Assembly (NCBI GenBank): GCA_965262725.1
Contig: OZ253555.1
Span: 1,826,762 to 1,890,761 of the forward strand
DNA from: Dehalococcoidia bacterium
GTDB taxonomy: Bacteria; Chloroflexota; Dehalococcoidia; UBA2979
DNA: 64,000 bases
Reading direction: 5' to 3'
How positions within the stretch are numbered: position 1 is the first letter of the stretch; each line of letters starts with the position of its first letter. The notes under the pieces were generated by a model. It saw nothing but the letters and a program-made list of their open reading frames with translations. It ran no database searches and was not told where the DNA came from. Shown one piece after another: positions 2,685 through 62,265 of this stretch. The translations under genes were made by a program, and so were the position numbers.

Positions 2685-2778
2685 CCCATCACTCCCTCTG
2701 CTCCGGGGGGGCGCGTTCCCCGCTACACTGTCGCCGGGCGCAAACGATCGTTATCGGCGTCCGTCAAGGAGAAGACCC

Positions 2779-3645
2779 GTGATTCCCGGACCGTTCGACT
2801 ACTTCGCCCCGTCCACTCTAGACGAAGCCTTGGCCCTGCTCTCAGATCACGGCCCCGATGCGAGAGTGCTCGCAGGGGGTCAGAGCCTGATACCTCTGAT
2901 GAAGCTGCGGCTCGCCGAACCGTCGGTGCTCGTCGACCTGAACCGCGTGCATGGGCTCGGCGGGGTCGAGGAGCGAGGCGATCATCTCCGGATCGGCGCG
3001 ATGACGCGTCACGCCGCGCTCGAGACCTCCGAGCTGATCAACTCGCGTTACCCGCTGATAGCGGAGGCCGCGCCCGTGATCGCCGACCCGCTGGTGCGAA
3101 ATCGCGGCACCACCGGCGGCTCCCTGGCCCACGCCGACCCCGCCGGAGATCTCGGGTCGGTCATGACCGCGCTCGGCGCCGAGATCGTCGTCACCGGTCC
3201 CTCGGGCGCGCGCACACTCCCGATCGACGACCTGCTGCTGGGTCCGTTTACCACCACGCTGGAGGACGGCGAGATCATGACCGAGGTGCGCGTCCCCCTC
3301 CCCCGGGCGGGAAGCGCGGGCACCTACGAGAAGCTCGAGCGGAAGGTCGGCGACTTCGCCACGGCCGCCGTCGCCGTCCAGCTCACCCGGGAGCGCGGTA
3401 GCTGCGCGTCGATCGGGATCGCTCTCACCGCGGTCGGGCCCACCACCATCCGTGCCAGCGCGGCCGAGGACTTCCTCCGGGGAGGCGGCATGGGCGAGCC
3501 GGAGCTCCGCGCCGCCGCCGAGCTCGCGGCCGAGGCCGCGGAGCCGGCCGCCGACCTACGGGGATCCGAGGAATACAAGCGGGACATGGTGCGGGTTCTG
3601 ACCCTGCGAGCGCTCAGGCGAGCGGTCGCACGAGCGGGAGGGTAG
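2779..3645 (+). CDS. coxM: CO dehydrogenase medium (FAD-binding) subunit CoxM
   Basis: GTG start after the RBS AAGGAGAAG. FAD-binding PCMH-like motifs (LAGGQSLIPLMKLR, GTTGGSLAHADPAGD). Confidence 0.8.
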   Translation: MIPGPFDYFAPSTLDEALALLSDHGPDARVLAGGQSLIPLMKLRLAEPSVLVDLNRVHGLGGVEERGDHLRIGAMTRHAALETSELINSRYPLIAEAAPVIADPLVRNRGTTGGSLAHADPAGDLGSVMTALGAEIVVTGPSGARTLPIDDLLLGPFTTTLEDGEIMTEVRVPLPRAGSAGTYEKLERKVGDFATAAVAVQLTRERGSCASIGIALTAVGPTTIRASAAEDFLRGGGMGEPELRAAAELAAEAAEPAADLRGSEEYKRDMVRVLTLRALRRAVARAGG

Positions 3646-3649
3646 AGAG

Positions 3650-4120
3650 ATGCCACAGATCGAGGTAACGGTGAACGGCACCGCCCATCAGGTGGATGTC
3701 GAGCCCCGCCTGCTCCTCGTGCACCTGATCCGCGAGGATCTCGCGCTCACGGGGACGCACATCGGCTGCGACACCACGCACTGCGGCGCCTGCACGGTCC
3801 TGCTCGACGGGGTGCCGGTGAAGTCCTGCACGATCTTCGCCGTCCAGGCCGATGGCGGCGAGATCAAAACGGTCGAGGGGCTGGAGCAAGGCGGCGTGCT
3901 CCATCCGATACAGCAGGCGTTCATGGAGAAGCACGGCCTGCAGTGCGGATTCTGCACACCGGGGATGATGCTGACGGGCGCCGCGCTGCTGGAGCGCAAT
4001 CCTGATCCCGACGAGGCGGAGGTGCGCCGAGCCATCTCGGGCAATCTCTGCCGCTGCACCGGCTACGTGAACATCGTCGAGTCCGTGCGGCACGCCGCCC
4101 AGACGTTGCGGGGGAGTTGA
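3650..4120 (+). CDS. coxS: CO dehydrogenase small [2Fe-2S] subunit CoxS
   Basis: 156 aa with two Fe-S cysteine clusters (CDTTHCGACTV; CGFCTPGMM...CRCTGY). Confidence 0.85.
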   Translation: MPQIEVTVNGTAHQVDVEPRLLLVHLIREDLALTGTHIGCDTTHCGACTVLLDGVPVKSCTIFAVQADGGEIKTVEGLEQGGVLHPIQQAFMEKHGLQCGFCTPGMMLTGAALLERNPDPDEAEVRRAISGNLCRCTGYVNIVESVRHAAQTLRGS

Positions 4121-6498
4121 CCATGACGACCAGGACGAGCGCCGAGATCGGCGGCATGGGGCACAGCGTCCGCCGCAAGGAGGATGCCCGCTTCATCCGG
4201 GGCAGAGGCAACTATGTGGACGACGTCGTCCGGCCGGGGATGCTCTACATGGACATCGTCCGGAGCCCCTACGCGCACGCCCGCATCACGAGCATCGACT
4301 CCGAGCGGGCGCTCCAGGTTCCCGGCGTCCTCGCCGTCATCACCGGCGAGACGCTGAAGGAATACAACCTGCACTGGATGCCGACTCTGATGTCCGACAC
4401 GCAGATGGTGCTGCCGGTGGAGAAGGTGATGTTCGCGGGGCAGGAGGTCGCCGCGGTGGTGGCGACCAGCCGCTACGCTGCGGCCGACGGCGTCGAGGCG
4501 GTGGAGGTGGAGTACGAGCGGCTGCCGGTCGTTGTGGACCCCTTCCGGGCGCTGGAGCCGGATGCCCCCGTGCTTCGCGACGACAAGGAGGGGAAGACCG
4601 ACAACCACATCTTCCACTGGGAGGTCGGGGACAAGGCCGCGACCGACCGCGCCTTCGAGGAGGCGGAGGTGACGGTCCAGCAGGATCTCTACATCCCGCG
4701 CATCCACGTGGCCTCCATCGAGACCTGCGGGTGCGTCGCCGAGTTCGACGCCGCGACCGGCCAGCTGACGGTATGGATGACCACGCAGGCCCCTCATGCG
4801 GTGCGGACCGTGTTCGCCCTGGTGGCGGGCCACGTCGGCCTCTCCGAGGAGAAGATCCGGATCATCTCGCCGGATATCGGCGGGGGTTTCGGCGGCAAGG
4901 TACCGGTCTACCCCGGCTATGTGATCGCGGTCGCCGCGGCGGTCGTCACCGGACACCCCATCAAGTGGATCGAGGACCGCATCGAGAACCTGCAGGCGGA
5001 CTCCTTCGGCCGCGACTATCACATGGCGGCGGAGCTGGCCGCGACGCGCGACGGCAAGATGACGGCGCTGCGGATCAAGACCCTGGCCGATCACGGATAC
5101 ACCGACGCCGCTGCGAACCCCTCGAAGTTTCCGGCGGGGCTGTTCTCGATCTGCACGGGCTCGTACGACTTCGAGCAGGCCTTCGCCGAGGTGGACGGCG
5201 TCTACACGAACAAGCCCCCCGGCGGGATCGCCTACCGCTGCTCGTTCCGCGTCACCGAGGCCGTGCACGCGATCGAGCGCCTCGTCGACGTGCTGGCGAG
5301 CGAGCTGGAGATGGACCCGGCCAAGCTCCGGAAGAGGAACTTCATCACGCCCGACGCCTTCCCCTACCAGTCGGTGCTCGGCTGGGAGTACGACAGCGGG
5401 AACTACGAGGGTGCACTCGACCTCGCGATGGAGATGATCGGCTACGACGAGCTCCGCCGGGAGCAGGCCGAGAAGCGCGCGCGCGGCGAGTTGATGGGGA
5501 TCGGCATCTCGAGCTTCACCGAGATCGTGGGGGCGGGTCCCTCGAAGCACTTCGACATCCTCGGGCTGAAGATGTTCGACAGCTGCGAGATCCGCGTGCA
5601 TCCGACCGGCAAGGCCACGGCCCGATTCGGCACGAAGTCGCAGGGGCAGGGCCACGAGACCACTTACGCCCAGATCATCGCGGAGGAGCTCGGCATCCCC
5701 TCGAGCGACATCGCCGTCGAGGAGGGAGACACGGACACCGCGCCCTACGGTCTCGGCACCTATGCCAGCCGCAGCACGCCCACCGCCGGGGCGGCGGGAT
5801 CCGTGGCGGCGACCAGGATCCGCGAGAAGGCGCGGAAGATCGCAGCCCATCTCCTGCGGGCGGAAGAGATCGTGGAGGATGACCTCGAGTGGGAGCCGGG
5901 GCGCTTCTTCGTAGCGAGCGATCCGTCGAAGGGCGTGACGATTCAGGAGATCGCCCTTGCCGCCTACACGGACTTCCCGGAGGGTCTGGAGGGCGGCCTC
6001 GAGGCCGTCTCCTACTACGACCCCCCCAACCTCACCTTCCCCTTCGGCAGCTACATCTGTGTGGTCGACATCGACACCGGCACCGGCGAGATCAGCATCC
6101 GCCGCTTCGTGGCCGTGGACGACTGCGGCAACATCATCAATCCGATGATCGTCGACGGGCAGATCCACGGCGGGCTCGCGATGGGGCTGGCGCCGGCGCT
6201 CTTCGAGGAGCTCTCCTACGACGAGAGCGGGAACCCGCTCAGCGCGAGCTTCACCGATTATCTTCTGCCGACCGCCGTGGAGACGCCGCGATGGGAGACG
6301 GGAAAGACGACGACGCCCTCTCCGCACCACCCGCTGGGTGCCAAGGGTGTGGGCGAGTCGGCCACCGTCGGGGCGCCGCCGGCGATCGCCAATGCGGTGG
6401 TGGACGCGCTCTCGCACCTGGGCGTGCGCCACATCGACATCCCGATCACGCCGGACAAGGTGTGGGCGCTGCTCCGGGAGCACGGGGTGACCGACTAG
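4117..6498 (+). CDS. coxL: form I carbon monoxide dehydrogenase large molybdopterin subunit CoxL
   Basis: 793 aa xanthine-dehydrogenase-family Mo subunit carrying the form-I active-site loop AYRCSFR (GGIAYRCSFRVTE). Confidence 0.85.
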   Translation: MTMTTRTSAEIGGMGHSVRRKEDARFIRGRGNYVDDVVRPGMLYMDIVRSPYAHARITSIDSERALQVPGVLAVITGETLKEYNLHWMPTLMSDTQMVLPVEKVMFAGQEVAAVVATSRYAAADGVEAVEVEYERLPVVVDPFRALEPDAPVLRDDKEGKTDNHIFHWEVGDKAATDRAFEEAEVTVQQDLYIPRIHVASIETCGCVAEFDAATGQLTVWMTTQAPHAVRTVFALVAGHVGLSEEKIRIISPDIGGGFGGKVPVYPGYVIAVAAAVVTGHPIKWIEDRIENLQADSFGRDYHMAAELAATRDGKMTALRIKTLADHGYTDAAANPSKFPAGLFSICTGSYDFEQAFAEVDGVYTNKPPGGIAYRCSFRVTEAVHAIERLVDVLASELEMDPAKLRKRNFITPDAFPYQSVLGWEYDSGNYEGALDLAMEMIGYDELRREQAEKRARGELMGIGISSFTEIVGAGPSKHFDILGLKMFDSCEIRVHPTGKATARFGTKSQGQGHETTYAQIIAEELGIPSSDIAVEEGDTDTAPYGLGTYASRSTPTAGAAGSVAATRIREKARKIAAHLLRAEEIVEDDLEWEPGRFFVASDPSKGVTIQEIALAAYTDFPEGLEGGLEAVSYYDPPNLTFPFGSYICVVDIDTGTGEISIRRFVAVDDCGNIINPMIVDGQIHGGLAMGLAPALFEELSYDESGNPLSASFTDYLLPTAVETPRWETGKTTTPSPHHPLGAKGVGESATVGAPPAIANAVVDALSHLGVRHIDIPITPDKVWALLREHGVTD

Positions 6499-22735: not shown

Positions 22736-23023
22736 CCGGCGAGCGCGCTCCCCTGCAAGCGGTGGTCGGTGGCGACGCGCATCACTGATGCTGCCGGCGT
22801 GAAGCTGCTGCCGACCGCAACATAAGATGGTGGAGGCAGGAGGAGGCTCGGGCCCTCCAGAACCAGGGCATCTGCGGCGCCGCTCAGGGTCGGAGTCGGG
22901 CTGGGCCCGCACGATCCCGTACGGGTTCAGGGCTGGCGTGCCTGGTCGAGACTGGACCCGCGCTGACGTTCGTCGCTTCACGTTGTGTATCGGCCCGAGG
23001 CTACCTTACCCCGGATCCAGAGC

Positions 23024-24937
23024 GCCAGGCTAACTGGCGAGTAGGCAGGAGGTGGAAGTCCTCTATGGCAAAGAGCTAGCCACTCATGTCATTCCGCGAG
23101 CCGTGCGCGGGTCGTCGCGAGGCGGCTTGTGAAGCGTCGGCAGCGGGGTGTGCGGGCGGGGCTAATGAGCATCGAAAGGGCCATTTGGGGTGCCGAGGCT
23201 CTTGGATTGGTCGAAGGCAATACCGGCGACGGCGCTACTGGCGAGTCGTGGTCGGGCCCCACGGTGTCGAAGACCCCATGCACGCACACACGTCTATCGC
23301 CGGGACTTGGGAGAGCTGCGCGTTGTCCCGACGAGTCGTACGCCGGGACCGCGTCGGGAAGGGACGTAAACCGTAGCCGATGATGAACGATGCGCAGCAG
23401 TCTGATGGGGCCGTACGAGCGATGAAGGCGGCGAACAAGGGGGCGCGAGCCCCGGCGGAGTCGCTGGAGCAAAGGGCCCCAACCGAGAGGAATCCTCAAA
23501 GCACCGGCACGGTCCGGACGCAGAGTCGGGGTGCGGTGTCACCCGGAGCGGAGAGGATACGGCAGTTCGTGGAACGGAAGCCGGGAGAGAAACTCACCGC
23601 GCTCTTGCACCACATCACGCCGGAGGCGCTGCGGGAGGCGTATCTCGCGTTGAAGCGGGATGCGGCTCCGGGCGTGGACGGGGTGAGGTGGCGAGAATAC
23701 GGGGACGGGCTGGACGAGCGATTGCTCGACCTGCATGGCCGCGTACACCGTGGAGCGTACCGGGCGAAGCCCGTCAGGCGGGTAGAGATACCCAAGCCGG
23801 ACGGGGGAATACGGCCGCTCGGTATCGTCTCGCTGGAGGACAAGATCGTTCAGCGGGCGGTGGTGGACAATCTTTTGAACCCGATTTACGAGTCGGGCTA
23901 CTACGGCTTCTCGCATGGCTTCAGGCCGGGGCGTTCGGCGCATGACGCGCTGGACGCACTGGCCTACGCGGTCGAACGGCGCAAGGTCAGCTGGATTGTC
24001 GAGGTGGACATCCGGGAGTTCTTCGGCAGCATCGACCGGGGGCGGCTGATGTCGTTTCTGGAGATGCGCATCGGGGACCAGCGGGTGTTGCGCCTGATAC
24101 GAAAGTGGCTGAGCGTCGGCGTCATGGACGCGGAGCCGGAAGTCGATTTCGTGCGGGGGATGCCGCAGGGGGCGCCGATATCGCCGCTGCTTGCGAACGT
24201 GTACCTGCACAACGTGCTCGACGACTGGTTTGCGCGCGAGTGGCGACCGCGGGAGGTCCGGGGCGAGGCGTACATCGTGCGGTATGCCGATGACTTCGTC
24301 CTGGGGTTCCAGCACCGCAGCGATGCGGTGCGGTTCATGGAGGCACTCCGGGAGCGGTTCGCGGCCTACGGGCTGGAGCTGCACCCGGAGAAGACCCGTC
24401 TACTTGAGTTCGGCAGGTTCGCGCTGGCGAACAGGCGGAAGCGCGGGGAGGGCCGACCGGAGACGTTCGACTTTCTCGGCATGACGCACTACTGCCGGAC
24501 CCGACGCGACGGGAGATTCGGGCTGGGGCGCAAGCCCGTTGCGAAGCGGATGCGCCGGACGCTGAAGGCCATCAAGGCCGAGTTGTGGCGGCGCATGCAC
24601 GACAACCCCGTGACGACGGGGCAGTGGCTGGGGCGGGTACTGCGTGGGTGGCTTGGCTACTACGCGGTGCCGACCAGCTCGCCGGCGCTCACGCGGTTTG
24701 TTCGTTTCGTGAAGCGGCTCTGGCTGCGCGTTCTCCGACGGCGGTCGCAGCGCGACCGTTTCACGTGGGAGCGCATCCTTGCCCTGTGCCAGAAACACTG
24801 GCCCCGAATCTCCATCCTTCACCCGTGGCCTGCGGAGCGATTTGCCGTCACGCACTTGAGGTAGGAGCCGGATGCCCGAGAGGGCACGTCCGGATCTGTG
24901 CGGGGGGTGCCGGGCAACCGGCATCCCTACCGCGAAC
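23024..24937 (+). mobile_element. group II intron copy 1 (5'-truncated relative to copy 2; intact RT ORF; domain V at 24865-24898)
   Basis: Near-identical to 48467-51718 apart from the IS insertion there. Domain V GAGCCGGATGCCCGAGAGGGCACGTCCGGATCT and a domain VI hairpin follow the RT ORF. The 5' boundary is where identity to copy 2 starts; no GUGYG at that point. Confidence 0.7.
23380..24864 (+). CDS. group II intron reverse transcriptase/maturase
   Basis: RT domains 0-7 (LHHITPEALREAYLALKRDAAPGVDGV, YADDFVLGF), an X/maturase domain and a C-terminal region. The true start is probably internal; the first ~60 aa likely translate domain IV RNA. Confidence 0.85.
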   Translation: MMNDAQQSDGAVRAMKAANKGARAPAESLEQRAPTERNPQSTGTVRTQSRGAVSPGAERIRQFVERKPGEKLTALLHHITPEALREAYLALKRDAAPGVDGVRWREYGDGLDERLLDLHGRVHRGAYRAKPVRRVEIPKPDGGIRPLGIVSLEDKIVQRAVVDNLLNPIYESGYYGFSHGFRPGRSAHDALDALAYAVERRKVSWIVEVDIREFFGSIDRGRLMSFLEMRIGDQRVLRLIRKWLSVGVMDAEPEVDFVRGMPQGAPISPLLANVYLHNVLDDWFAREWRPREVRGEAYIVRYADDFVLGFQHRSDAVRFMEALRERFAAYGLELHPEKTRLLEFGRFALANRRKRGEGRPETFDFLGMTHYCRTRRDGRFGLGRKPVAKRMRRTLKAIKAELWRRMHDNPVTTGQWLGRVLRGWLGYYAVPTSSPALTRFVRFVKRLWLRVLRRRSQRDRFTWERILALCQKHWPRISILHPWPAERFAVTHLR

Positions 24938-25093
24938 CGGTGACCGGTGTTGAGCCGTGCGGAGGAGCGCGAAGCGGCCGTCGTGTGAGGTGCGGGAGCC
25001 GTTTGTGACTCCCGGAGGAGTGCGCGGCGCTGTCCGGGGCGTGTGATCAGCAGGGGAGACCGGCGCGGAGGCGATTGCGGACAGGCGGGCGCG

Positions 25094-26535
25094 CGGCGCT
25101 GGTCCGCGAGCGGCGAGGGGGAGCGGCGTCAGGTCGGGAGCGGGAGCGCGCGCAGCCGTGCGAGGGCATCGGTGAAGTGACCGGCCCATGGCCAGCGCGC
25201 CGGCAGATGGAGCGTGAACCGACGAGCAGAGCGGGTCAGCCGCCCGACGAGAGCGAAGAGCCGCCGCCGGAGCGTCCGGGTGGTGACGATGCGCTCGCCG
25301 AGCCCGAGCCGCGCCGTCCAGCGAGCGAGATTGTGGGCGATCACCTGGACCGCGAGCCAGGCGCCGTTGGCGGCGAAGCGGCCGGACGGCAGGTGATTGA
25401 GCCCCACGCCGTACTTCAGGTCGCGGATCGCGTTCTCGACCTCGGCGTGGCGGCGATGGTCGGCCTCCAGTTCGAGCGTCTCCCCGTCGCGGTCGGTGAT
25501 GAAGGCGTGGTAGCTATACGTCGCGAAGAGAGCGAGCTGCGAACCAGGCGTCGGCCGCACGCGCCGGACGATGAGCCGCACCGGGACGGCGTCCGGCGCG
25601 TGTGCGAACGGCGTGTAGGTCGTCTCTGAGACATCGGCGCCGCCCTCCAGCCAGTACGGGATCGGCGTCCACTCCTGTTCGGGAATCGCCTCGGTCAGCT
25701 TCCGCAGCTTCGGATGCTGGCGGATCGTGACCGAGAAGCGGACATCCATCTCGCGGCAGGCAGCGACCACCGCGCGGGAGTAGAAGCCGCTGTCGGCGCG
25801 CACCGTGAGTTGCCCGTTCGCTCCGGCATCGCGGACTCGACCCACCGTCTCCTGTAGGAAGTGGGCGGCGCCCCGGCCGCTGTACGCACGACCCCCGCGC
25901 AGCCGGGCCATCAGCACGTCACCCGTCCCGGCCGCCACCGCGAGCAGCGGGTGATAGCCGCGCGCACCGGTGTAGCCGGGGCGCTGCGCCCCCTCCTTGG
26001 CGAAGCCGTAGGTCTCGCACACCGTCGAATCGAGGTCGATGGTGAATGGCGCCTCGCCGGGTCCGGCCCCGGCGGCCCAGGCGCGGGCAAGCAGCGCGCG
26101 ACTGACGCGGTCGAGCTGGCGGACGTGGCCCCAGCGGAAACTGCGTAGGAAGGTGCCGAGCGTGGATGGCGCCTTGACGGTGCATCCGAGAACGCGCTCT
26201 GTGCCGCCGGCGCGCAACGCATCGGCATCGTCGATGCAGTCGCCGCCCGCTAGCACGGAGGCGACGAGTGTCGCGACCTTGTCTCCCGCGTTCGCCCTGC
26301 CCGGTGCGTCGCCGAGGTCGAGGTGACGGTCGACCAGCTCCCGCAGGCCGAGACGTTCGGCGAGCGTGGCCGGCAGGAGCAGACCCGCGTGGGCCACCAG
26401 GCGGTCGTCGTCGAAGGCGATCGAGAGCCGGGCGGGGCTGCTCGGTGATAGCATCGAATGGGTGCTCCCTGTTTCCGGTGGATCGTTCGCTTCACGACCA
26501 TTCTCCCAGATTCAGAGGAGCACCCAATTCCCTCT
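25094..26535 (-). mobile_element. IS1380-family insertion sequence (copy A)
   Basis: Transposase 25129..26454. Both termini are homologous to the ends of IS copy B at 51733-53161. Confidence 0.7.
25129..26454 (-). CDS. IS1380-family DDE transposase
   Basis: 441 aa, about 85% identical to the 51819..53144 product. Typical IS1380 transposase layout. Confidence 0.8.
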   Translation of the reverse strand: MLSPSSPARLSIAFDDDRLVAHAGLLLPATLAERLGLRELVDRHLDLGDAPGRANAGDKVATLVASVLAGGDCIDDADALRAGGTERVLGCTVKAPSTLGTFLRSFRWGHVRQLDRVSRALLARAWAAGAGPGEAPFTIDLDSTVCETYGFAKEGAQRPGYTGARGYHPLLAVAAGTGDVLMARLRGGRAYSGRGAAHFLQETVGRVRDAGANGQLTVRADSGFYSRAVVAACREMDVRFSVTIRQHPKLRKLTEAIPEQEWTPIPYWLEGGADVSETTYTPFAHAPDAVPVRLIVRRVRPTPGSQLALFATYSYHAFITDRDGETLELEADHRRHAEVENAIRDLKYGVGLNHLPSGRFAANGAWLAVQVIAHNLARWTARLGLGERIVTTRTLRRRLFALVGRLTRSARRFTLHLPARWPWAGHFTDALARLRALPLPT

Positions 26536-26705
26536 CTTCGCGACTGCATCCACGCTCTCCTTCGGTGCATCCGGGCTTACGGTGCTCGAGTCAGCCGGCG
26601 ACCAGCGTTGGGTGGGACATCGTGTCGGTGTTGGCCCGGGGAGCCGCGCGACCGACGAGGCACGCACGCGTCTTCGTGATCGCGCTCCGCTCGACGTGGC
26701 TCGAG

Positions 26706-26835
26706 ATGCGCACGCGCTCCGAGTTCATCTCCACGCTCGGGAACGGCGTGCCCCGCTTCGCCGTTCTCGCCTGGATCGCGGGTCAGAGCGAGGATTCGAG
26801 CGTGGTCGCGACCGTATCGGTCGGGATCGTGCTGC
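26706..26835 (+). CDS. candidate exon 1 of an intron-split ABC-2 permease gene (hypothesis)
   Basis: Stop-free, GC3-rich frame (MRTRSEFISTLGNGVPRFAVLAWIAG...VGIVL) that ends exactly at the GTGCG 5' splice site of intron X. Resembles DrrB-type N-termini. Confidence 0.3.
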
Positions 26836-27649
26836 GTGCGTCCGGAAGTCGAAGGGGTGGTGACGTGATGACGTGACCGGTCCGGAGACATGCTCGTTGC
26901 TGCCAGCCGGTGAGAGTCCGGCACGGGTAACTGTCAGGAGGCCCGTTAGCAGGTCGGCGGCGTGGACGGGAAACGGTCTGCGTCGAAGCCCGACGTCAAG
27001 AGCCCTATGAGGGGGAGCAAACGTGCGGTCCGCAGCATGACGCGAAGTCTGCCGCGCCGTGAGACTCGCCTGTCTATTGACAGGACCAAGGAGGAGCCGA
27101 GCCCGGGTGGTCAGGGCGAAGGCCATGGACGAGGTGAAGATCCTGGAATGCAGCCTCAAGAAACCTCCCGGCGTATGGGACGTGGAACGTACGGAAGGTA
27201 GCGACGGGAACCGGAGAAGCCCTCCCCGGCCCGGCACCCTGTGAGAGGGCGTCGGAGCGAGGCGTCCTATAACCGGTCAGAGCCGGGAAGTGGACAGCCA
27301 GCCGGAAGGGTGGCGGAGGGGGTCGTAGTACCGCTGGAGCCGGACGGACAACATAACCGCCGGTGATGGGAAGGACCCCTACTTTGTCCGTGCATGTTGC
27401 TGGGGGTGTGGACTGGTGAGTGCCCCTCGGGGCTAGCAACCACTTGGTAGGGTTCGAGGCTCTCCGCACATGCTGTACCGGCTGGCCAAGGCACGACCCA
27501 CGTTGTGGGGAGCGCTGCATGCCATCTGGTGAAGGGCATCGGTGAGCCGGATGAGGGAGAACCTCACGTCCGGTTCGATGTGGCAGGGGCTGGAGACGGA
27601 CGCTGCTATGGCCGTGGAGTTGGGCACCACCGGGAAACCGGCTTGGAAC
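26836..27649 (+). mobile_element. ORF-less group II intron (intron X), related to the domain I of the RT-encoding intron
   Basis: 5' GTGCGTCCGGAAGTCGAAGG aligns with 48121 GTGCGCCTTGAAGTTGAAGG, and the first ~350 nt are about 80% similar to 48121-48466. Canonical domain V GAGCCGGATGAGGGAGAACCTCACGTCCGGTTCG at 27544-27577. No RT ORF. The 3' end is approximate. Confidence 0.65.
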
Positions 27650-27651
27650 TG

Positions 27652-28299
27652 ATGCGCCACCGCCTACGGCTCGCACCGCGCCAGCCCCTGACCCTACTCG
27701 TTATCTGGACGGCCGCGGCTTTCCGCGTCAGCTTCACCCTGCGGAATGAGGCGTTCCTCGGGACGCTCGACCTCAACATGCTCGGCCGCTCGCCGCTGGC
27801 TTTGATCACGCTCGGCAAGGCGGCCGCCGTCACGCTCTCCTTCGTCCCGAACGCGATCGCCGCCCTGATCGTCGTGTTCGCCGTCACGCGCCAGCCGATC
27901 ACGGTCGCGGCGCTCCCTGCGTTCGCGGTCGCGATGACGCTGGCGATCCTCGCTCTCCTCGCGGTGGCGTTCGTGCTCTTGCCGATGCTCTTCATCATTG
28001 GGAACCGCGCCGGCTCCTTCGCCGCGATCACGCCCTTCGGCGCCGTGCTGTCGGGCTTCGTCTACCCGATCGATGTCCTCCCGGGCGCGCTCGAGGTCGT
28101 GGCCCGCCTCATGCCGACGTCGTGGGCGATGGAGACGGTCAGGTGGTCGATCTTCGGCGGCCACGACGCCTCCGACTTCGCCGGCCACTGGGCGGTCGCC
28201 GCCGCGCTGACCGCGCTCTACGTCGCGATCTCCGTGTGGCTCTTCCGGGTCGCGGAGACCCGCATACGCCGGAGCGGCAGCGTGGAGGGCGGGTTCTAG
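27652..28299 (+). CDS. ABC-2 type transporter permease (possibly exon 2 of an intron-split gene)
   Basis: Six predicted TM segments. The ATG at 27652 lies 3 nt after the proposed intron 3' end. Confidence 0.6.
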   Translation: MRHRLRLAPRQPLTLLVIWTAAAFRVSFTLRNEAFLGTLDLNMLGRSPLALITLGKAAAVTLSFVPNAIAALIVVFAVTRQPITVAALPAFAVAMTLAILALLAVAFVLLPMLFIIGNRAGSFAAITPFGAVLSGFVYPIDVLPGALEVVARLMPTSWAMETVRWSIFGGHDASDFAGHWAVAAALTALYVAISVWLFRVAETRIRRSGSVEGGF

Positions 28300-48120: not shown

Positions 48121-49355
48121 GTGCGCCTTGAAGTTGAAGGACGGTGCAGGATGACCTGACCAGTCTGGAGACGTGCTCGTTGTCGCCAACCGGTGCAAGT
48201 CCGGTCCGGGTAACTATCAGGAGGCTCGGTAGCAGGTCGGCGGCTTGGTCTGGAAACGGACCGGGTCGGAGCCCGACGTCGAAAGCCCTTTCAGGGGAAG
48301 CAAACACACGGTCCGCAGCATAAAGCGAAGCCTGCCGCGTCGTAAGAGTCCCCGCCATTGGCGGGAAAGAGGAAGAGCCGAGCCCCGACCCTCAGGGCGA
48401 AGGCCATGGAAGAGATGAAGACCTGGAATCGCAATCTCGAAGAACTTCCCGGCGTAAGCCCTGATCCAGAGCGCCAGGCTAACTGGCGAGTAGGCAGGAG
48501 GTGGAAGTCCTCTATGGCAAAGAGCTAGCCACTCATGTCATTCCGCGAGCCGTGCGCGGGTCGTCGCGAGGCGGCTTGTGAAGCGTCGGCAGCGGGGTGT
48601 GCGGGCGGGGCTAATGAGCATCGAAAGGGCCATTTGGGGTGCCGAGGCTCTTGGATTGGTCGAAGGCAATACCGGCGACGGCGCTACTGGCGAGTCGTGG
48701 TCGGGCCCCACGGTGTCGAAGACCCCATGCACGCACACACGTCTATCGCCGGGACTTGGGAGAGCTGCGCGTTGTCCCGACGAGTCGTACGCCGGGACCG
48801 CGTCGGGAAGGGACGTAAACCGTAGCCGATGATGAACGATGCGCAGCAGTCTGATGGGGCCGTACGAGCGATGAAGGCGGCGAACAAGGGGGCGCGAGCC
48901 CCGGCGGAGTCGCTGGAGCAAAGGGCCCCAACCGAGAGGAATCCTCAAAGCACCGGCACGGTCCGGACGCAGAGTCGGGGTGCGGTGTCACCCGGAGCGG
49001 AGAGGATACGGCAGTTCGTGGAACGGAAGCCGGGAGAGAAACTCACCGCGCTCTTGCACCACATCACGCCGGAGGCGCTGCGGGAGGCGTATCTCGCGTT
49101 GAAGCGGGATGCGGCTCCGGGCGTGGACGGGGTGAGGTGGCGAGAATACGGGGACGGGCTGGACGAGCGATTGCTCGACCTGCATGGCCGCGTACACCGT
49201 GGAGCGTACCGGGCGAAGCCCGTCAGGCGGGTAGAGATACCCAAGCCGGACGGGGGAATACGGCCGCTCGGTATCGTCTCGCTGGAGGACAAGATCGTTC
49301 AGCGGGCGGTGGTGGACAATCTTTTGAACCCGATTTACGAGTCGGGCTACTACGG

Positions 49356-50681
49356 GGCACCTCGAAGAACTCGCGATTGTTGATGAAGGTATCGGTGAGG
49401 GCACGAGGGGGCAGAGGGCGTAGCTGAGGAGACCCCAGGGGGTGTGGGTGAGTCCGCGAGAGCATAGGTGAAGCGGGATAATTGACAGTTAAACGGGACT
49501 GTCAAAGCACCGAACTAGAGGCTGGTGTGAGGTCTGTGGACGGGTGGCGGCAAGCTAGGCCGCGGCAGCCGTACGGCGGTGTTCGAGGTGCGCCAGACGG
49601 CGAATATTGTACGCCAGGTTCTTGAAGCCGATCTGCGTCACTGCCCGCCGCACGCCGATCGTACGGATGTGCGTGCCGCCCATCTCGTTCGTCTGCGAGC
49701 CGAAGATGTGCTCAACCCGGGCCCGTACTTGCGACCATCCCCGGTTGACCGCCTCCTCAGCCGCCGTCAACGGCCGGTTGGCAGCGGCCTTCCGATGGAT
49801 GCGGCTCGTCAGACCTTTCTCCGTGAGCATTGCCTCAATCGCCCGCGACCGATAGGCACGGTCTGCCCACACATCGGGTGACGTGTTCGGAGAGTCGAGC
49901 AGCTGGTCGATCACCTGGCTGTCATGGACCGCGGCATCGGTGACGGCGTAGGAACGCACCAGCTTGTGGCGCCGATCGATGGTGATGTGGTTCTTGTAGC
50001 CGTAGTGACTCTTCCCGTGCTTCTTCGTCCAGCGGGCGTCGAGGTCTTTCTGGGCCAGCTTCGCCGGATTGAAGACCCACTCCGAGGGAATGAGGTCCTG
50101 CTTGAGCGACTCGTTCTCCCGGCGGCTGTTGCGCTGGATCGGCACCGAGACGATCGAGGCGTCGACGATCTGTCCGCCACTGGCGCGGTAGCCCTGGCTG
50201 GCGAGATAGTGGTCGAAGGCCTGGAACAACTCGGCGATGGCGCCCGCCCTGGTCAACTGCTCGCGGTAGAGCCAGAAGGTGGTGGCGTCGGGCACCCGGC
50301 CTTCGATGCCTGTGCCGCAGAAGCGGGAGAAGGAGAGACGGTCGCGGATCTGATACTCAATCTGTTCATCGGAGAGGTTGTAGAGTACGCCGAGTATCAA
50401 TCCCTTGAAGATGACGATTGCGTCCCATGGCTTGCGTCCGGCCGGTGATTTACGCTCTTCTTCGGGCGTGGCCCAGACGGCTTCTAACTGAGGTCTGAAC
50501 TGCTCCCACGGGATGATTTGGTCGAGCTTGGCGAGTGGGTCGCCCTTGGCGTCGAGAGCGTCGTAGCGGTCGTCCACATTGAAGAACCCAAGTTGGCCCA
50601 TATCATCCCCCGTAACCATGACCCTAATGGCTACAGTATATCATTCACCATGCCGACGATATAGTCATTCTTCGAAGTGCC
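49356..50681 (-). mobile_element. IS5-family insertion sequence nested in the intron RT ORF
   Basis: Imperfect terminal inverted repeats GGCACCTCGAAGAA / GGCACTTCGAAGAA. Flanking direct repeat about CTACGG. Transposase at 49555..50619. Confidence 0.7.
49555..50619 (-). CDS. IS5/IS4-superfamily DDE transposase
   Basis: 354 aa DDE_Tnp_1-like protein (...DASIVSVP...WTKKHGKSHYGYKNHIT...DRAYRS...). Confidence 0.75.
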   Translation of the reverse strand: MVTGDDMGQLGFFNVDDRYDALDAKGDPLAKLDQIIPWEQFRPQLEAVWATPEEERKSPAGRKPWDAIVIFKGLILGVLYNLSDEQIEYQIRDRLSFSRFCGTGIEGRVPDATTFWLYREQLTRAGAIAELFQAFDHYLASQGYRASGGQIVDASIVSVPIQRNSRRENESLKQDLIPSEWVFNPAKLAQKDLDARWTKKHGKSHYGYKNHITIDRRHKLVRSYAVTDAAVHDSQVIDQLLDSPNTSPDVWADRAYRSRAIEAMLTEKGLTSRIHRKAAANRPLTAAEEAVNRGWSQVRARVEHIFGSQTNEMGGTHIRTIGVRRAVTQIGFKNLAYNIRRLAHLEHRRTAAAA

Positions 50682-51732
50682 CTACGGCTTCTCGCATGGC
50701 TTCAGGCCGGGGCGTTCGGCGCATGACGCGCTGGACGCACTGGCCTACGCGGTCGAACGGCGCAAGGTCAGCTGGATTGTCGAGGTGGACATCCGGGAGT
50801 TCTTCGGCAGCATCGACCGGGGGCGGCTGATGTCGTTTCTGGAGATGCGCATCGGGGACCAGCGGGTGTTGCGCCTGATACGAAAGTGGCTGAGCGTCGG
50901 CGTCATGGACGCGGAGCCGGAAGTCGATTTCGTGCGGGGGATGCCGCAGGGGGCGCCGATATCGCCGCTGCTTGCGAACGTGTACCTGCACAACGTGCTC
51001 GACGACTGGTTTGCGCGCGAGTGGCGACCGCGGGAGGTCCGGGGCGAGGCGTACATCGTGCGGTATGCCGATGACTTCGTCCTGGGGTTCCAGCACCGCA
51101 GCGATGCGGTGCGGTTCATGGAGGCACTCCGGGAGCGGTTCGCGGCCTACGGGCTGGAGCTGCACCCGGAGAAGACCCGTCTACTTGAGTTCGGCAGGTT
51201 CGCGCTGGCGAACAGGCGGAAGCGCGGGGAGGGCCGACCGGAGACGTTCGACTTTCTCGGCATGACGCACTACTGCCGGACCCGACGCGACGGGAGATTC
51301 GGGCTGGGGCGCAAGCCCGTTGCGAAGCGGATGCGCCGGACGCTGAAGGCCATCAAGGCCGAGTTGTGGCGGCGCATGCACGACAACCCCGTGACGACGG
51401 GGCAGTGGCTGGGGCGGGTACTGCGTGGGTGGCTTGGCTACTACGCGGTGCCGACCAGCTCGCCGGCGCTCACGCGGTTTGTTCGTTTCGTGAAGCGGCT
51501 CTGGCTGCGCGTTCTCCGACGGCGGTCGCAGCGCGACCGTTTCACGTGGGAGCGCATCCTTGCCCTGTGCCAGAAACACTGGCCCCGAATCTCCATCCTT
51601 CACCCGTGGCCTGCGGAGCGATTTGCCGTCACGCACTTGAGGTAGGAGCCGGATGCCCGAGAGGGCACGTCCGGATCTGTGCGGGGGGTGCCGGGCAACC
51701 GGCATCCCTACCGCGAACCGAAGAAGAGTGCG

Positions 51733-53161
51733 CGAGCGGCTGGGGTTGGGTGCTCCGCTGTAGCTGGGACAATGGTTTTTGACCGAATCACGTCACAGCC
51801 ACAGGGAGCACCCATTCGATGTTAGCAACGAGCAGCCCCGACCGGATACACATCGCCTTCGACGACGACCGCCTCGTGGACCACGCGGGCCTGCTGCTCC
51901 CGGCCACGCTCGCTGGCCGGCTCGGCCTCCGTGAACTGGCAGACGCCCAGCTCGACCTCGGTGACGCAGCGGGGCGGGCGAACGTCGGCGACAAGCTGAT
52001 GACTCTCATCGCCTCGGCGCTCGCGGGCGGCGACTGCATCGATGACGCCGATGCCATGCGCTCAGGCGGCGCCGGGCGCGTGCTCGGCTGCACCGTGAAG
52101 GCGCCGTCCACCCTCGGGACCTTCCTGCGCAGCTTCCGGTGGGGCCACGTCCGCCAGCTCGACCGCGTCAGCCGCGAGTTGCTGGCCCGCAGCTGGGCGG
52201 CCGGGGCGGGACCCGGCGCGGCGCCGTTCACGATCGACCTCGACTCGACGCTCTGCGAGACCTACGGCCTCGCCAAGGAGGGCGCCCGGCACCACGGCTA
52301 CACGGGCGTGCGCGGCTATCACCCGCTGCTCGCGGTGGCGGCCGGGACGGGTGAGGTGCTGATGGCGCGGCTGCGCGGGGGCCGTGCCAACACCGCTCGG
52401 GGGGCCGCACACTTCCTGCGTGAGACGGTGGCGCGGGTGCGCGACGCCGGGGCCTCGGGGCAGCTCACGCTGCGCGCCGACAGCGGCTTCTACAGCCACG
52501 CTGTCGTCGCCGCCTGCCGCAAGCAGGATGTCCGCTTCTCCATCACCATTCGCCAGCAGCCGAACGTACGCCGGCTGATCGAGGCGATACCGGAAGAGGA
52601 CTGGACGCCGATCCCGTACTGGCTGCCGGGCGGCGCCGCTGTCGCCGAGACGACCTACACGCCGTTCCAGCACACGGGGGACGCCACCGCGGTGCGGCTC
52701 ATCGTGCGGCGCGTCACGCCGACGCCCGGCTCACAGCTCGCGCTCTTCGTGGACTACAGTTACCACGCCTTCATCACCAACCGCGCGGGGGAGATGATGG
52801 AGCTGGAGGCCGACCATCGCCGTCACGCCGAGATCGAGAACGCGATCCGCGACCTCAAGTACGGCGTCGGGTTGAACCATCTCCCATCGGGCCGCTTCGC
52901 CGCGAACGCGGCGTGGCTCGCGGTGCAGGTGATCGCGCACAACCTCGCCCGCTGGACGGCGCGCCTCGGGCTCGGCGAGGGAATCATGACGACCAGGACG
53001 CTCAGGCGGCGCTACTTCTCTCTCGCCGGACGGCTCACCCGCTCTGCCCGGCGGTGGACTCTGCACCTCCCGAAGCGCTGGCCCTGGGCAGAGCAGCTGG
53101 CAGCCGCGCTCGCGCGACTACGGGCGATACCGCTCCCGGCCTGACGCTCGCTCACAGCGCC
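51733..53161 (+). mobile_element. IS1380-family insertion sequence (copy B)
   Basis: Starts about 14 nt after the intron copy-2 3' end. Transposase at 51819..53144. Ends homologous to copy A. Confidence 0.7.
51819..53144 (+). CDS. IS1380-family DDE transposase
   Basis: 441 aa paralog of 25129..26454. Confidence 0.8.
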   Translation: MLATSSPDRIHIAFDDDRLVDHAGLLLPATLAGRLGLRELADAQLDLGDAAGRANVGDKLMTLIASALAGGDCIDDADAMRSGGAGRVLGCTVKAPSTLGTFLRSFRWGHVRQLDRVSRELLARSWAAGAGPGAAPFTIDLDSTLCETYGLAKEGARHHGYTGVRGYHPLLAVAAGTGEVLMARLRGGRANTARGAAHFLRETVARVRDAGASGQLTLRADSGFYSHAVVAACRKQDVRFSITIRQQPNVRRLIEAIPEEDWTPIPYWLPGGAAVAETTYTPFQHTGDATAVRLIVRRVTPTPGSQLALFVDYSYHAFITNRAGEMMELEADHRRHAEIENAIRDLKYGVGLNHLPSGRFAANAAWLAVQVIAHNLARWTARLGLGEGIMTTRTLRRRYFSLAGRLTRSARRWTLHLPKRWPWAEQLAAALARLRAIPLPA

Positions 53162-53370
53162 GACCCGGGTCCGAGGCTCGCGCCAGCATGCCCGCGCACG
53201 CCTCGCGCACCCTCGCGCCCGCACCCTCAGCGCCCACGAGCGGTGCTGAGCGACGGCTTCTGGCTCCGGCCCGCCCCCGGCGCCGCCCGGCGAACGCCGG
53301 CACGCCCGCCGAACTCTCCGGCAGCCCGGCACCCCGCCTCGTCAAGCTTCGATCGGTGGATTCGAGCTTA
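53162..53370. repeat. 209-bp direct repeat, copy 1 (second copy at 55042-55250)
   Basis: About 98.5% identical copies flanking the IS481-like element. No convincing ORF. Confidence 0.85.
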
Positions 53371-53377
53371 GACCGAT

Positions 53378-55015
53378 CACTGTGTCGACGAGCAGCGATT
53401 CGGTCAGGGGCTAACGCGTCAGCGACCCTGTCCTCCCTGGAAGCAGAAGCAGGGGGTGACAGTGCAGCAATCCGAACAGGCACGCCGCTATGTACTCGAC
53501 AGCGTGATCGCAGGCGATCTGCGGGTCGCGCAGGCCGGCGAGATCATGGGCATCAGTCAGCGCCACACGCGGCGCCTCCTCGCCGCCTACCGCGCGCGGG
53601 GAGCCGCGGCGCTGGGGCACGGCAACCGCGGCCGTCGCCCCCACAACGCTGTCCCGGTCGCCGTCGCCTCCGCCGTGGTGCGCTTCGCCACCAGCGGCTA
53701 CCCGGGAGCGAACCACACCCACCTCGCCGAGCTGCTCTGGGAGCACGAGGGTCTGGAGGTGAGCAGCTCGTCCGTCCGCCGGATCCTGGCGAAGGCCGGC
53801 ATCCCCAGTCCCCGACGCCGCCGGCCGCCCGAGCACCGCGTCCGGCGTGAGCGGATGCCCCGCGAGGGGATGCTGCTCCAGGTGGACGGCAGCCATCACG
53901 CCTGGCTCGAGGAACGAGGCCCCCGCTTCGCCCTGCTGCTCGCCGTCGACGATGCGACCGGCGCAGCCGTGCACGCGCTCTTCCGCCCCACCGAGGACGC
54001 GCGCGGCTACTTCCTCCTGCTGGAGGAGGTCGTCCGCGGCTGCGGCATCCCGCTCGCCCTCTACAGTGACCGCCACGGCGTCTTCCTGGCCGGTCCCGGC
54101 GGGCGGCGTGGGCTCAAGGCCTCGACCCAGTTCGCGCGGGCGATGGGCGAACTCGGGATACGCCAGATCTTCGCGCGATCACCCCAGGCGAAGGGGCGCG
54201 TGGAACGTGCCGCAGGTACGTTTCAGGACCGGCTGGTGACCGAGCTGCGCCACGCCTCAGCCTCCACCATCCCCGAGGCGCAGGCCGTGCTCGAGGGCTT
54301 CCTGCCGCGCTTCGACGCCCGCTTCCGGGTCCCGGCGGCGCAACCCGAGCAGGCCTACCGCCCGCTCGACCCCGCGCTCCCCCTCGCCTCCATCCTCAGC
54401 TTTCGGAACCCCCGCACCGTCGCCCGCGACAACACAGTCAAGTACCGCTGGCGCACGCTGCAGCTGCTGCCGGGTCCCGAGCGCACCAGCTACGCTGGGA
54501 CACGGGTCGAGGTCGTGGAACGGCCGGGCGGCGAGCTCTCCGTCCAGCACGTAGGCGAGACGATCCCCTCTCGCCCGGCACCGCCGCGCGCGGGGATGCT
54601 GCGGGAGGCTCGCTCCGAGCTGGCTCTCCGCCCCGACCACGAGCGCATCGCCTCAGGGCTCGGCTCCGGCGGCGCGCCTCGGCGGCTCAGTGCGCCCCCC
54701 GTCGCCCCGTCGGCGGTTGCGGCCGGCAACGGCGCTGCGGTCAGGCCGGAGACCAACGGCAAGCAACTCCCTGCTCCGACGCCCCGGCAGCTCGCCCGCT
54801 GGAAGGCGATTCAGCAGGCGCAGCTGCAAGGGCTCTCGATGCGGGCGACCGCCAGGCTGCTCGGGATCGCCCGCGACACCGTCCACAACTACGTCCTGGC
54901 TAACGGCGTGCCTGGACGCCGCAACGGCGCCGCGGCATCCTCCGACGACCAGGGCGACACTGACAGAGTCGCTGACGCGTTACGAGGACAGAATCGCTGA
55001 CCGTCGACAGTCACT
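53378..55015 (+). mobile_element. IS481/ISNCY-like element with about 60-bp imperfect terminal inverted repeats
   Basis: Left end CACTGTGTCGACGAGCAGCGATTCGGTC...TAACGCGTCAGCGACCCTGTC. Right end is the reverse complement (GACAGAGTCGCTGACGCGTTA...GAATCGCTGACCGTCGACAGTC). Confidence 0.6.
53456..55000 (+). CDS. DDE (rve integrase-core) transposase, IS481/ISNCY-like
   Basis: 514 aa with an N-terminal HTH and RRPH-type motif (LGHGNRGRRPHNAV), an rve core and a C-terminal HTH. Confidence 0.65.
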   Translation: MTVQQSEQARRYVLDSVIAGDLRVAQAGEIMGISQRHTRRLLAAYRARGAAALGHGNRGRRPHNAVPVAVASAVVRFATSGYPGANHTHLAELLWEHEGLEVSSSSVRRILAKAGIPSPRRRRPPEHRVRRERMPREGMLLQVDGSHHAWLEERGPRFALLLAVDDATGAAVHALFRPTEDARGYFLLLEEVVRGCGIPLALYSDRHGVFLAGPGGRRGLKASTQFARAMGELGIRQIFARSPQAKGRVERAAGTFQDRLVTELRHASASTIPEAQAVLEGFLPRFDARFRVPAAQPEQAYRPLDPALPLASILSFRNPRTVARDNTVKYRWRTLQLLPGPERTSYAGTRVEVVERPGGELSVQHVGETIPSRPAPPRAGMLREARSELALRPDHERIASGLGSGGAPRRLSAPPVAPSAVAAGNGAAVRPETNGKQLPAPTPRQLARWKAIQQAQLQGLSMRATARLLGIARDTVHNYVLANGVPGRRNGAAASSDDQGDTDRVADALRGQNR

Positions 55016-60814: not shown

Positions 60815-62265
60815 ACGGGTGGCTCAAAGTAGCGTCCCAGCAAGTGGTGTCACAGGCGGGGAGACGGTCTCCGCAGGGGGACCTACTACCGACCACGGTG
60901 CCCATGCAGGTGGACGTAAGAGACCACCGCATCATCCTTCACGAAGTTATGACGAACGTGGAGGAGGACGACGGTGGTCAGAGAGAGCGTGGACGTGTTG
61001 GAACTGCTCCGCAAGCAGGCATCGGGAGCTGACCTCGATTTCCTGCGCGAAGCGGTGGCTGTGCTCGCCGAGGCGGTCATGGACCAGGAGGTCTCGGCGC
61101 AGGTCGGCGCCGGCTACGGCGAGCGCAGCGAGATGCGCACCACCCGGCGCAACGGCTACAGGCAAAGACGCTGGGACACGCGGGTGGGCAGCATCGACCT
61201 GCAGATCCCGAAGCTCCGCCAGGGGTCCTACTTCCCGGCGCTGCTCGAGCCCCGGCGCCGCTCAGAGCGCGCCTTGCTAGCCGTCGTCCAGCAAGCGTAC
61301 GTGGAGGGCGTCTCCACTCGCCGCGTCGACGACCTCGTGCGCTCGCTCGGCTGCGAGGGCATCTCCAAGAGCCAGGTCTCGCGTATCTGCTCGGAGCTCG
61401 ACACGGTCGTCACAAGTTTCCTCGGCCGGCCCCTGGACTCCGGCCCCTACCGATACCTCTGGCTCGACGCGCTCACCCAGCGGGTGCGCGAGGAGGGCCG
61501 CATCGCCCAGGTGAGCGTCGTCGTCGCCACCGCGGTCAACGTGGAGGGGAAGCGCGAGGTGCTGGGCATCGACGTCGGTACCAGCGAGGACGGGGCCTTC
61601 TGGCTGGCATTTCTCCGCGGCCTCGTAGCACGAGGGCTCTCCGGCGTGGAGCTGGTGACCTCCGACGCCCACCAGGGCCTGAGGGGAGCGATCGCGACCG
61701 TCTTCGGCGGCGCCTCCTGGCAGCGCTGCCGTACCCACTTCATGCGGAACCTGCTCACACGCGTGCCGAAGAGCGCCGAGGCGCTGGTGGCGACGACCGT
61801 GCGCACCATCTACCAGCAGCCCTCGGCCTCCGAGGTGCACGCCCAGCACACGCGGGTCGTGGAGCAGCTCGGTGCGCGCTTCCCGCAGGCCGCGGCAATG
61901 CTCGCCGACGCCGCGGAGGAGATCCTGGCGTTCACGGCCTTCCCGGTGGCGCACTGGCGGCAGATCTGGTCGAACAACCCCCAGGAGCGGCTCAACAAGG
62001 AGATCCGCCGGCGCACCAACGTGGTCGGCATCTTCCCCAACCGCTCAGCGGTCATCCGGCTCATCGGTGCGGTGCTCTCCGAGCAGCACGACGAGTGGGC
62101 CGTGGGGCGGCGCTACATGACGATGATGACGCTGCTCTCCCCGCCGGGGAGTGAGCTCACGTCAGGCAAGGAGGTGCTGCTGCAGGCTGCCGGCTAACAA
62201 ATGATAAGGATGATGCGCAGTGACACCACTTGCCGGGACGTGACCGACACCACTCGTATCGGTAC
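60815..62265 (+). mobile_element. IS256-family insertion sequence
   Basis: Inverted repeats CGTCCC(A/G)GCAAGTGGTGTCAC at about 60832 and about 62225-62250 (reverse complement). Transposase at 60974..62197. Confidence 0.7.
60974..62197 (+). CDS. IS256-family (mutator-type) transposase
   Basis: 407 aa (HWRQIWSNNPQERLNKEIRRRTNVVGIFPNRSAVIRLIGAVLSEQHDEW). Confidence 0.85.
   Translation: MVRESVDVLELLRKQASGADLDFLREAVAVLAEAVMDQEVSAQVGAGYGERSEMRTTRRNGYRQRRWDTRVGSIDLQIPKLRQGSYFPALLEPRRRSERALLAVVQQAYVEGVSTRRVDDLVRSLGCEGISKSQVSRICSELDTVVTSFLGRPLDSGPYRYLWLDALTQRVREEGRIAQVSVVVATAVNVEGKREVLGIDVGTSEDGAFWLAFLRGLVARGLSGVELVTSDAHQGLRGAIATVFGGASWQRCRTHFMRNLLTRVPKSAEALVATTVRTIYQQPSASEVHAQHTRVVEQLGARFPQAAAMLADAAEEILAFTAFPVAHWRQIWSNNPQERLNKEIRRRTNVVGIFPNRSAVIRLIGAVLSEQHDEWAVGRRYMTMMTLLSPPGSELTSGKEVLLQAAG

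Follow-up and report, generated by a model that had tools for sequence, protein, structure and literature searches.

Group II introns that home into insertion sequence (IS) elements or into other introns are documented, and the opposite arrangement is represented by TeI4g::ISEL2f of Thermosynechococcus elongatus, a group II intron with an insertion element in its open reading frame (ORF) (PMC2882425). The intron-encoded proteins of T. elongatus also act on other intron copies, including those that lack an ORF or are disrupted by an IS (PMC2882425). Here, we describe a related locus in a 64,000-nt stretch of DNA from a Dehalococcoidia bacterium (assembly GCA_965262725.1, contig OZ253555.1; the whole stretch is referred to as the window, and positions are counted from its first base). 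The window contains two copies of a compact group II intron, intron B. Copy 1 is intact, while copy 2 has an IS5-family element inside its maturase gene. A first-pass annotation had read positions 48121-51718 as one full-length intron carrying this IS. The nesting is confirmed, but intron B spans only 48469-51717, about 350 bases shorter at the 5′ end, and the region is very probably a stack of at least five mobile-element layers rather than one intron with one guest.

The locus resembles TeI4g::ISEL2f in that an IS lies in the domain IV ORF of a bacterial group II intron and intact sister copies are present in the same genome. It differs in IS family and phylum. In T. elongatus, the action of intron-encoded proteins on other copies has been shown, while at our locus it is a prediction. 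TeI4g belongs to the chloroplast-like IIB class, from which intron B differs. A second precedent is RmInt1 of Sinorhizobium meliloti, which homes into a target within ISRm2011-2, an element of the IS630 family (PMC4496777). Both are endonuclease-less bacterial introns with a natural homing site in an IS, such that they would spread with the abundance of that IS. Unlike RmInt1, intron B has its site 10 bp inside the terminal inverted repeat of IS1380-family elements, where it is usable at either end; it also has non-canonical ends and a much smaller ribozyme.

Twintrons and nested intron arrays are known from T. elongatus, Trichodesmium and Methanosarcina acetivorans (PMC2882425, PMC4649490). 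There, as in our case, introns target mobile elements and form multi-layer nests, and relatives of intron B occur within domain V of other introns. In contrast, the two introns stacked at our locus are separated by an IS1380 end, and one of them, intron A, is only a fragment. The nesting reported here is true but ordinary: an IS in an intron ORF and an intron in an IS are both known already. A literature search pairing group II introns with IS1380 found nothing relevant.

Intron B also shares features with the group IIC introns (Oceanobacillus iheyensis, Eubacterium rectale and GsI-IIC of Geobacillus stearothermophilus), namely the compactness of its ribozyme (the part outside the ORF measures about 430 nt) and a maturase that has no endonuclease. 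The solved maturases nearest to its protein are from IIC introns (7uim, E=1.7e-45; 6ar1, E=3.8e-42; compared with 5e-29 for LtrA). Group IIC introns insert just downstream of a terminator or attC stem-loop and use a short intron-binding site 1 (IBS1) (PMC4424553). Intron B, unlike them, targets a defined sequence, to which its exon-binding site 1 (EBS1) pairs over 5-8 bp, and has the 5′ end GAGCG; no hairpin abutting its targets was seen by inspection. Membership of class IIC is thus not supported, since the choice of target is un-IIC-like despite the compactness and the closest maturases. In domain V, IIC introns carry the triad CGC, as opposed to AGC in intron B.

Extent and target sites of intron B

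The window has a GC content of 69% and is rich in mobile elements. Its closest relatives are Dehalococcoidia metagenome-assembled genomes (MAGs), and it looks MAG-like itself. Protein families were assigned using Pfam and NCBIfam profiles and RNAs using Rfam, and the window was compared with itself for repeats. Comparison loci fetched from other assemblies are numbered L001-L040. An exact-sequence look-up of the 494-aa maturase encoded by copy 1 gave no record; relatives were obtained by homology search, where they are abundant. The loci chosen by maturase relationship consist of the closest ones, 24 loci from Dehalococcoidia genomes and 3 more distant ones, and the relatives of intron B that were compared amount to about 30 copies from at least 8 genomes (L010-L036 and L038-L040).

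Within the window, the identity is 99.9-100% between 48459-49355 and 23010-23906 and likewise between 50682-51720 and 23901-24939. Copy 1, which had been treated as the lesser copy, is complete, and copy 2 is copy 1 plus the IS. The nucleotide homology of every related locus begins at the equivalent of 48455-48479 (BLAST) and ends at 51717-51719. The segment 48121-48454 is attached in none of the approximately 30 related copies, nor in copy 1. Across the junction alignment the copies share the start G(A/U)(G/A)(C/A)(G/A)-CCAGGCUAACUGG, and the canonical GUGCG of the L013 lineage is found at the site homologous to the GAGCG of the window.

The reading of 48121-51718 as a single full-length 2.27-kb intron with 5′ GUGCG, in which case all other copies would be 5′-truncated, draws on the canonical GUGCGCC at 48121, on the presence of a domain I-type D1D4-4 match (RF02003, 48187-48323, 91.8 bits) upstream of the D1D4-6 match (RF02005, 48504-48725, 170 bits), and on the 708 nt preceding the ORF, which would suit the size of a IIA or IIB intron. 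However, the same truncation base would then have to be shared by about 30 copies that come from at least 8 genomes and have intact ORFs and differing flanks. The two Rfam models, D1D4-4 and D1D4-6, are members of a single clan, and each begins at the GUGNAAGUCC motif, so that the claimed region contains two domain I's in tandem. In addition, the only homology of 48121-48456 is with the first 340 nt (26836-27175) of a separate intron, which carries its own domains V and VI (see below).

Three further lines of evidence place the 5′ end at 48469 and are at odds with the longer form. First, the last 3-8 nt of the 5′ flank are complementary to the EBS1 loop, and the loop varies with the flank in at least 8 lineages (flank/loop pairs: AUCCA/UGGAU, CAUGCCA/UGGUAUG, UGCGGG/CUCGCA, UAUGCGUU/AACGCA, GCGGGA/UCCCGC and GCGCUG/CAGCG). 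The mean number of contiguous EBS1 pairs is 5.4 with the copy's own flank vs. 3.6 with the flanks of other lineages. As EBS1 pairs and covaries with the bases directly upstream of 48469, the 5′ splice site is placed at 48468|48469. Second, when 9 diverse 5′ parts are folded to a consensus, 115 pairs are formed, with 95.4% paired; compensatory changes support 49 of the pairs, a result reached by 0 of 500 shuffles, and slid controls are 36-43% paired. Domain I is shut 7 nt from the 5′ end by two covarying helices between nt 6-27 and nt 263-281 (columns 8-29 and 283-301 of the alignment). Domain I of the short form therefore closes on itself, and the ribozyme needs nothing upstream of 48469. Third, intron-free IS1380 ends read GATCCA|CCGAAG, and the uninterrupted IS1380 ends in L011 and L027 read TAA(A/C)CCC(T/G)GATCCA|CCGAAGAAGAG. 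These sites fit the short form and fix intron B as 48469-51717. They also decide the 3′ end, for which 51718 (...AC), suggested by the Rfam alignment, is replaced by 51717. The only alternative to these boundaries would be to shift them leftward by 1 nt, at the cost of the IBS1 register.

The complete ribozyme formerly proposed to run from the 5′ GTGCGCC thus has to be divided, since 48121-48468 consists of a fragment of another intron and 10 bp of an IS1380 inverted repeat. Joining the 5′ third of intron A to intron B is also what made copy 1 appear to be the lesser copy. We see virtually no chance that the longer form is correct.

Intron B as delimited here has the expected parts of a group II intron: domains I-III with EBS1 pairing to the 5′ exon; a reverse transcriptase (RT)/maturase ORF in domain IV, which is split at codon 176 in copy 2; a domain V hairpin (about 34 nt is typical) with a catalytic triad, a 2-nt bulge and a GNRA loop; and a domain VI whose fold shows a UA bulge with A51710 located 7 nt from the end at 51717, within the defining 7-8 nt. 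Domains V and VI had already been recognized in the first-pass annotation, and are found both by Rfam (RF00029) and by folding (z-score of -4.9 for domains V/VI).

The targets of intron B and its relatives are defined sequences, namely domain V of other introns, the inverted repeat of IS1380 elements, and a repeat that ends in TGG|CCCCAC. Pairing of EBS1 with the inverted repeat of IS1380 elements would be the target rule for the lineage, a proposal that is well-supported by the sequences compared. Relatives lie inside domain V of other introns in L013, L014, L033 (~2139-4056) and L038 (~3000), while L039 has two relatives arranged head to tail (~1135 and ~3055). In L027 (3995-5666), an IS1380 element occupies the domain V loop of an intron and is flanked by the repeat TTAG(C). 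Introns and IS1380 elements, as judged from these arrangements, invade each other reciprocally. Another case of an IS in an intron is found in L029, where a segment of about 1.2 kb (~1139-2329) is inserted right in the EBS1 loop, after CTCTAG, of a relative of intron B.

The IS5-family element in the maturase gene

The 354-aa ORF of the inserted element scores 271 bits against NF033581 (IS5 family transposase; cutoff of 140), and 92 and 71 bits against PF01609 and PF05598, respectively (Pfam scan), which identifies 49355-50682 as an element with an IS5-type DDE transposase. Its inverted repeats, previously noted as GGCAC(C/T)TCGAAGAA, were found again and extend by one base to GGGCAC(C/T)TCGAAGAA, with 15 of 16 positions matching. 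As first described, the RT gene is broken after ...ESGYYG; in the 494-aa RT/maturase, the break falls at codon 176 and separates ...NPIYESGYYG from FSHGFRPGRS. Excision of 49355-50682 together with one TACG restores copy 1 at 1916 of 1916 compared bases, so that aligning the two copies, as had been proposed, sets the IS boundaries cleanly. The first-pass annotation would have given up the nesting had inverted repeats and a duplication been missing against copy 1; both are present, and the nesting stands.

The target duplication itself needs to be revised. The 6-bp repeat CTACGG that had been reported is literally present (49350-55 and 50682-87), but the real duplication is most likely the 4-bp TACG (49351-49354 and 50683-50686). 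Nine further copies of the same IS5 element, 99.6-99.8% identical, are present in other assemblies, and in 10 of 10 copies GGCAC has a G before it and GTGCC a C after it, which gives the ends GGGCAC...GTGCCC. Because these outer bases are constant, CTACGG is read as TACG plus the IS tips, with the extra C and G most likely matching the target by chance. With these ends, four copies have perfect 4-bp duplications: TACG in the window, and ACTA, CTGA and GCTA (in IS orientation) in L002, L003 and L007, respectively. The 6-bp model was dropped, as it fails in L002 and L007 exactly at the outer base and the G and C flank all ten copies. Elements of the IS5 group have 4-bp target duplications in ISfinder.

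In L001, L004, L006, L008 and L009, the IS5 copies (2939-4264) are flanked by inverted IS630-like ends (GGACACTAG ... CTAGTGTCC), and a gene for a 364-aa IS630-type transposase is often found beside them. Such copies may reflect a preference for CTAG targets that are created at IS630 ends. A metagenome scan for the intron::IS5 junction gave 0 matches, and there is thus no sign of the composite having moved.

The host elements and the probable order of layers

From 51718 onward, the sequence is 94-95% identical to the IS1380-family ends in L011 and L027, and the inverted repeats CCC(T)GATCCACCGA / CTCGAATCCACCGA of this second IS1380 element of the window (element 2) are present. Intron B is located 10 bp inside its left inverted repeat, and copy 1 occupies the same position in element 1. 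The free inverted repeat of element 1 reads GATGCA|CCG, with a mismatch in IBS1, and has no intron. Elements 1 and 2 are about 80% identical over the aligned stretch while their introns are 100% identical, which argues that the intron entered each of them independently and recently. The coordinates of all features are listed in Table 1.

Table 1. Features of the intron B copies, their host elements and the adjoining remnants in the window.
Feature	Position	Strand	Evidence or remark
IS256-family transposase, C-terminal ~83 codons	47870-48120	minus	cut at ..TN|PIES.. by intron A
Intron A, 5′ third (part of domain I)	48121-48456	+	starts GUGCG; antisense to IS256 transposase gene
IS1380 element 2	48459-53366	+	interrupted by intron B at 48469-51717
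Outer 10 bp of left inverted repeat, element 2: CCCTGATCCA	48459-48468	+	5′ exon of intron B
IBS1 GATCCA	48463-48468	+	TAAG precedes element 2 at 48455-48458
Intron B, 5′ part	48469-49354	+	5′ end GAGCG; RF02005 match; shared start; covarying fold
Intron B, domains I-III	48469 to ~48828	+	RF02005; fold
EBS1 UGGAUU	48652-48657	+	loop of hairpin at 48648-48661, the loop hairpin of the Rfam D1D4-6 model
RT ORF, N-terminal part, copy 2 (175 codons)	48829-49354	+	
IS5-family IS, 1328 bp	49355-50682	minus (antisense to intron)	profile matches; 10 copies compared; clean excision
IS5 transposase gene, 354 aa	49555-50619	minus	NF033581, PF01609, PF05598
Intron B, 3′ part	50687-51717	+	ends ...GCGAA; PF00078; RF00029; intron-free sites
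RT/X-domain ORF remainder, copy 2	50687 to stop codon 51643-51645	+	PF00078 on 322-aa ORF
Domain V	51646-51677	+	AGC triad, CG bulge, GAGA loop
Domain VI	51679-51717	+	bulged A at 51710
Rest of IS1380 element 2	51718-53366	+	inner left inverted repeat starts CCGAAGAAGAG; right end ...GGTGGATTCGAG at 53366
Transposase gene, element 2	51819-53144	+	NF033539, 336 bits (cutoff 180)
Copy 1, intact reference intron B, 1917 nt	23020-24936	+	
RT/maturase ORF of copy 1, 494 aa	23380-24864	+	TIGR04416, 326 bits (cutoff 300)
IS1380 element 1	23009-26575	minus	direct repeat CTTA(C); hosts copy 1 in one inverted repeat
Transposase gene, element 1	25129-26454	minus	
Intron B target sequence (predicted retrohoming site): CCCTGATCCACCGAAGAAG			

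Upstream of element 2, the intron A fragment is 80% identical to the first 340 nt of an ORF-less intron at 26836-27697 and has no match in copy 1. It is truncated at TAAG, where element 2 starts. No other part of intron A (domains II-VI) is found in the window, and in the metagenome scan the end of the fragment gave 0 matches and no full-length copy of this intron variant was recovered. The IS256 remnant on its other side matches no family in Pfam or NCBIfam on its own, but is 70-76% identical to annotated IS256 family transposases (tblastn vs. plasmids) and corresponds to residues ~351-429 of an IS256 transposase of 436 aa.

The ORF-less intron at 26836-27697 (D1D4-4, 102.8 bits; RF00029, 37.5 bits at 27542-27697) lies in sense orientation within an ABC-2-type permease gene. 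Joining 26835 to 27698 yields one continuous ORF, with a weak PF12698 match (E=3.6e-6) that is below the cutoff. Introns within ordinary bacterial genes are uncommon. This intron would need a maturase supplied in trans. Downstream of element 2, transposase-like ORFs are present at 53456-55000 and 60974-62197; one encodes a 514-aa protein with HTH_23/28/29/32 domains, while the other is distantly IS256-like, with 26% identity to a Rhodococcus IS256 transposase.

The abutment of the two introns could also be taken as a true twintron, with intron B inserted straight into intron A and the two spliced sequentially. Nesting is common in the lineage, as relatives of intron B lie in domain V of A-type introns (L013, L014 and L033) and of another intron (L038). 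However, TAAG and 10 bp of the IS1380 inverted repeat separate the end of the intron A homology (48456) from intron B (48469), and it is the IS1380 body rather than the 3′ part of intron A that follows intron B. The rest of this intron A variant begins immediately after neither 51717 nor 53366. A twintron is a complete intron within a complete intron, and intron A is a 336-nt 5′ fragment. We therefore regard a twintron as highly improbable.

From these boundaries, we infer the following order of events for the layered stack. A group II intron of the ORF-less type (intron A) would have entered a minus-strand IS256-family transposase gene. IS1380 element 2 would then have entered intron A at TAAG, and a later rearrangement would have removed the remainder of intron A and the IS256 element, as suggested by the missing direct repeat of element 2 and the missing parts of intron A. 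Intron B, compact and endonuclease-less, would next have retrohomed between GATCCA and CCGAAG of the left inverted repeat of element 2, directed there by base pairing between its EBS1 loop and the final six nucleotides of the exon. Finally, the IS5 element would have moved into RT codon 176, by DDE cut-and-paste or by copying, and duplicated TACG. Each layer would be a standard event, either DDE transposition (three IS types) or EBS-guided retrohoming (the introns).

Several observations weigh against this history or against the activity of intron B. The RF00029 match (51644-51718; 39.9 bits, E=1.5e-5) falls just short of the gathering score of 40. Domain V has a G.A instead of the usual G.U opposite the triad G (GAGCCGG...CCGGAUC). 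The intron ends, GAGCG...GCGAA, are off the group II boundary consensus of 5′ GUGYG ... AY 3′ (PMC4424553). In 6 of the 10 IS5 copies, which lie between IS630-like ends, no clean repeat is seen under either the 4-bp or the 6-bp model. IS1380-family elements duplicate 4-5 bp of their target, as is seen in L027 (TTAG(C)) and at element 1 (CTTA(C)), whereas element 2 is flanked by TAAG (48455-48458) and CTTA (53367-53370), which are reverse complements and do not form a direct repeat. Lastly, the insertion of element 2 into intron A is read from abutting sequences only, which could also stem from an assembly join at repeats.

Some of these points extend beyond copy 2. The A that replaces U across from the G in the AGC triad is found in the whole intron B family, i.e. 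in the window (51646-51677) and in all related loci. The 5′ ends in the family are GAGCG, GAACG, GAACA and GUGAA, with GUGCG only in the L013 lineage. The off-consensus ends are a trait of the whole lineage, not a fault of copy 2. It should be noted that the activity of intron B is not to be assumed from the consensus; its sole support would come from the traits common to many intact multi-copy relatives. As for the TAAG/CTTA flanks, they suggest a rearrangement after insertion (inversion or deletion) between IS copies.

A broader form of the assembly concern is that part of the nest represents a wrong join between repeats in a MAG. The window resembles MAG assemblies and the region consists almost wholly of repeats; element 2 lacks a direct repeat, and abrupt ends are seen in intron A as well as in the IS256 gene. 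Against this, the IS5 inverted repeats, the target duplication and the perfect match to the empty site mark a real event, and the intron/IS1380 junction recurs at element 1 in the window and in L011. We consider such an artefact unlikely, although it has a somewhat better chance than a twintron.

Consequences for copy 2 and for the intron lineage

In agreement with the first-pass annotation, copy 2 cannot make a maturase of its own, as its split ORF leaves a 175-aa N-terminal stub and a C-terminal part without a start. Its domains I-III, the ORF-proximal part of domain IV (IVa), and domains V and VI are the same as those of copy 1 base for base. The ORF-proximal part of domain IV is the maturase-binding part in studied introns. 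Given this identity of the RNA domains and of the start of domain IV, it is plausible, by analogy with introns served by other copies, that the maturase of copy 1 could splice copy 2 in trans. With a 1.3-kb antisense insert in domain IVb, copy 2 probably has a less stable RNA and is less mobile. Indirect signs of the mobility of intron B are its identical copies at two homologous targets and the many copies in related genomes.

Taken together, these features raise the possibility that intron B belongs to a lineage of group II introns in Dehalococcoidia that are compact and mobile despite non-canonical termini, with one branch specialised on the IS1380 terminal inverted repeat, which it would split 10 bp from the tip, thereby riding on or disabling the DNA transposon, and which can carry a DNA transposon as cargo, as in copy 2. 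We put this forward tentatively, with slightly less than even confidence.

For genome annotation, the locus illustrates how a GUGCG-bearing fragment fused to a neighbouring intron produces a false full-length element and causes complete copies to be mislabelled as truncated. It also provides a clean natural case of a maturase-less intron copy near an identical, intact maturase donor. The many intact copies with non-consensus splice-site sequences could be of interest to ribozyme specialists if they prove to splice. Since nested elements of this kind are already known, the modest interest that remains lies in the lineage itself, with its many intact off-consensus copies and one branch that targets the IS1380 inverted repeat.

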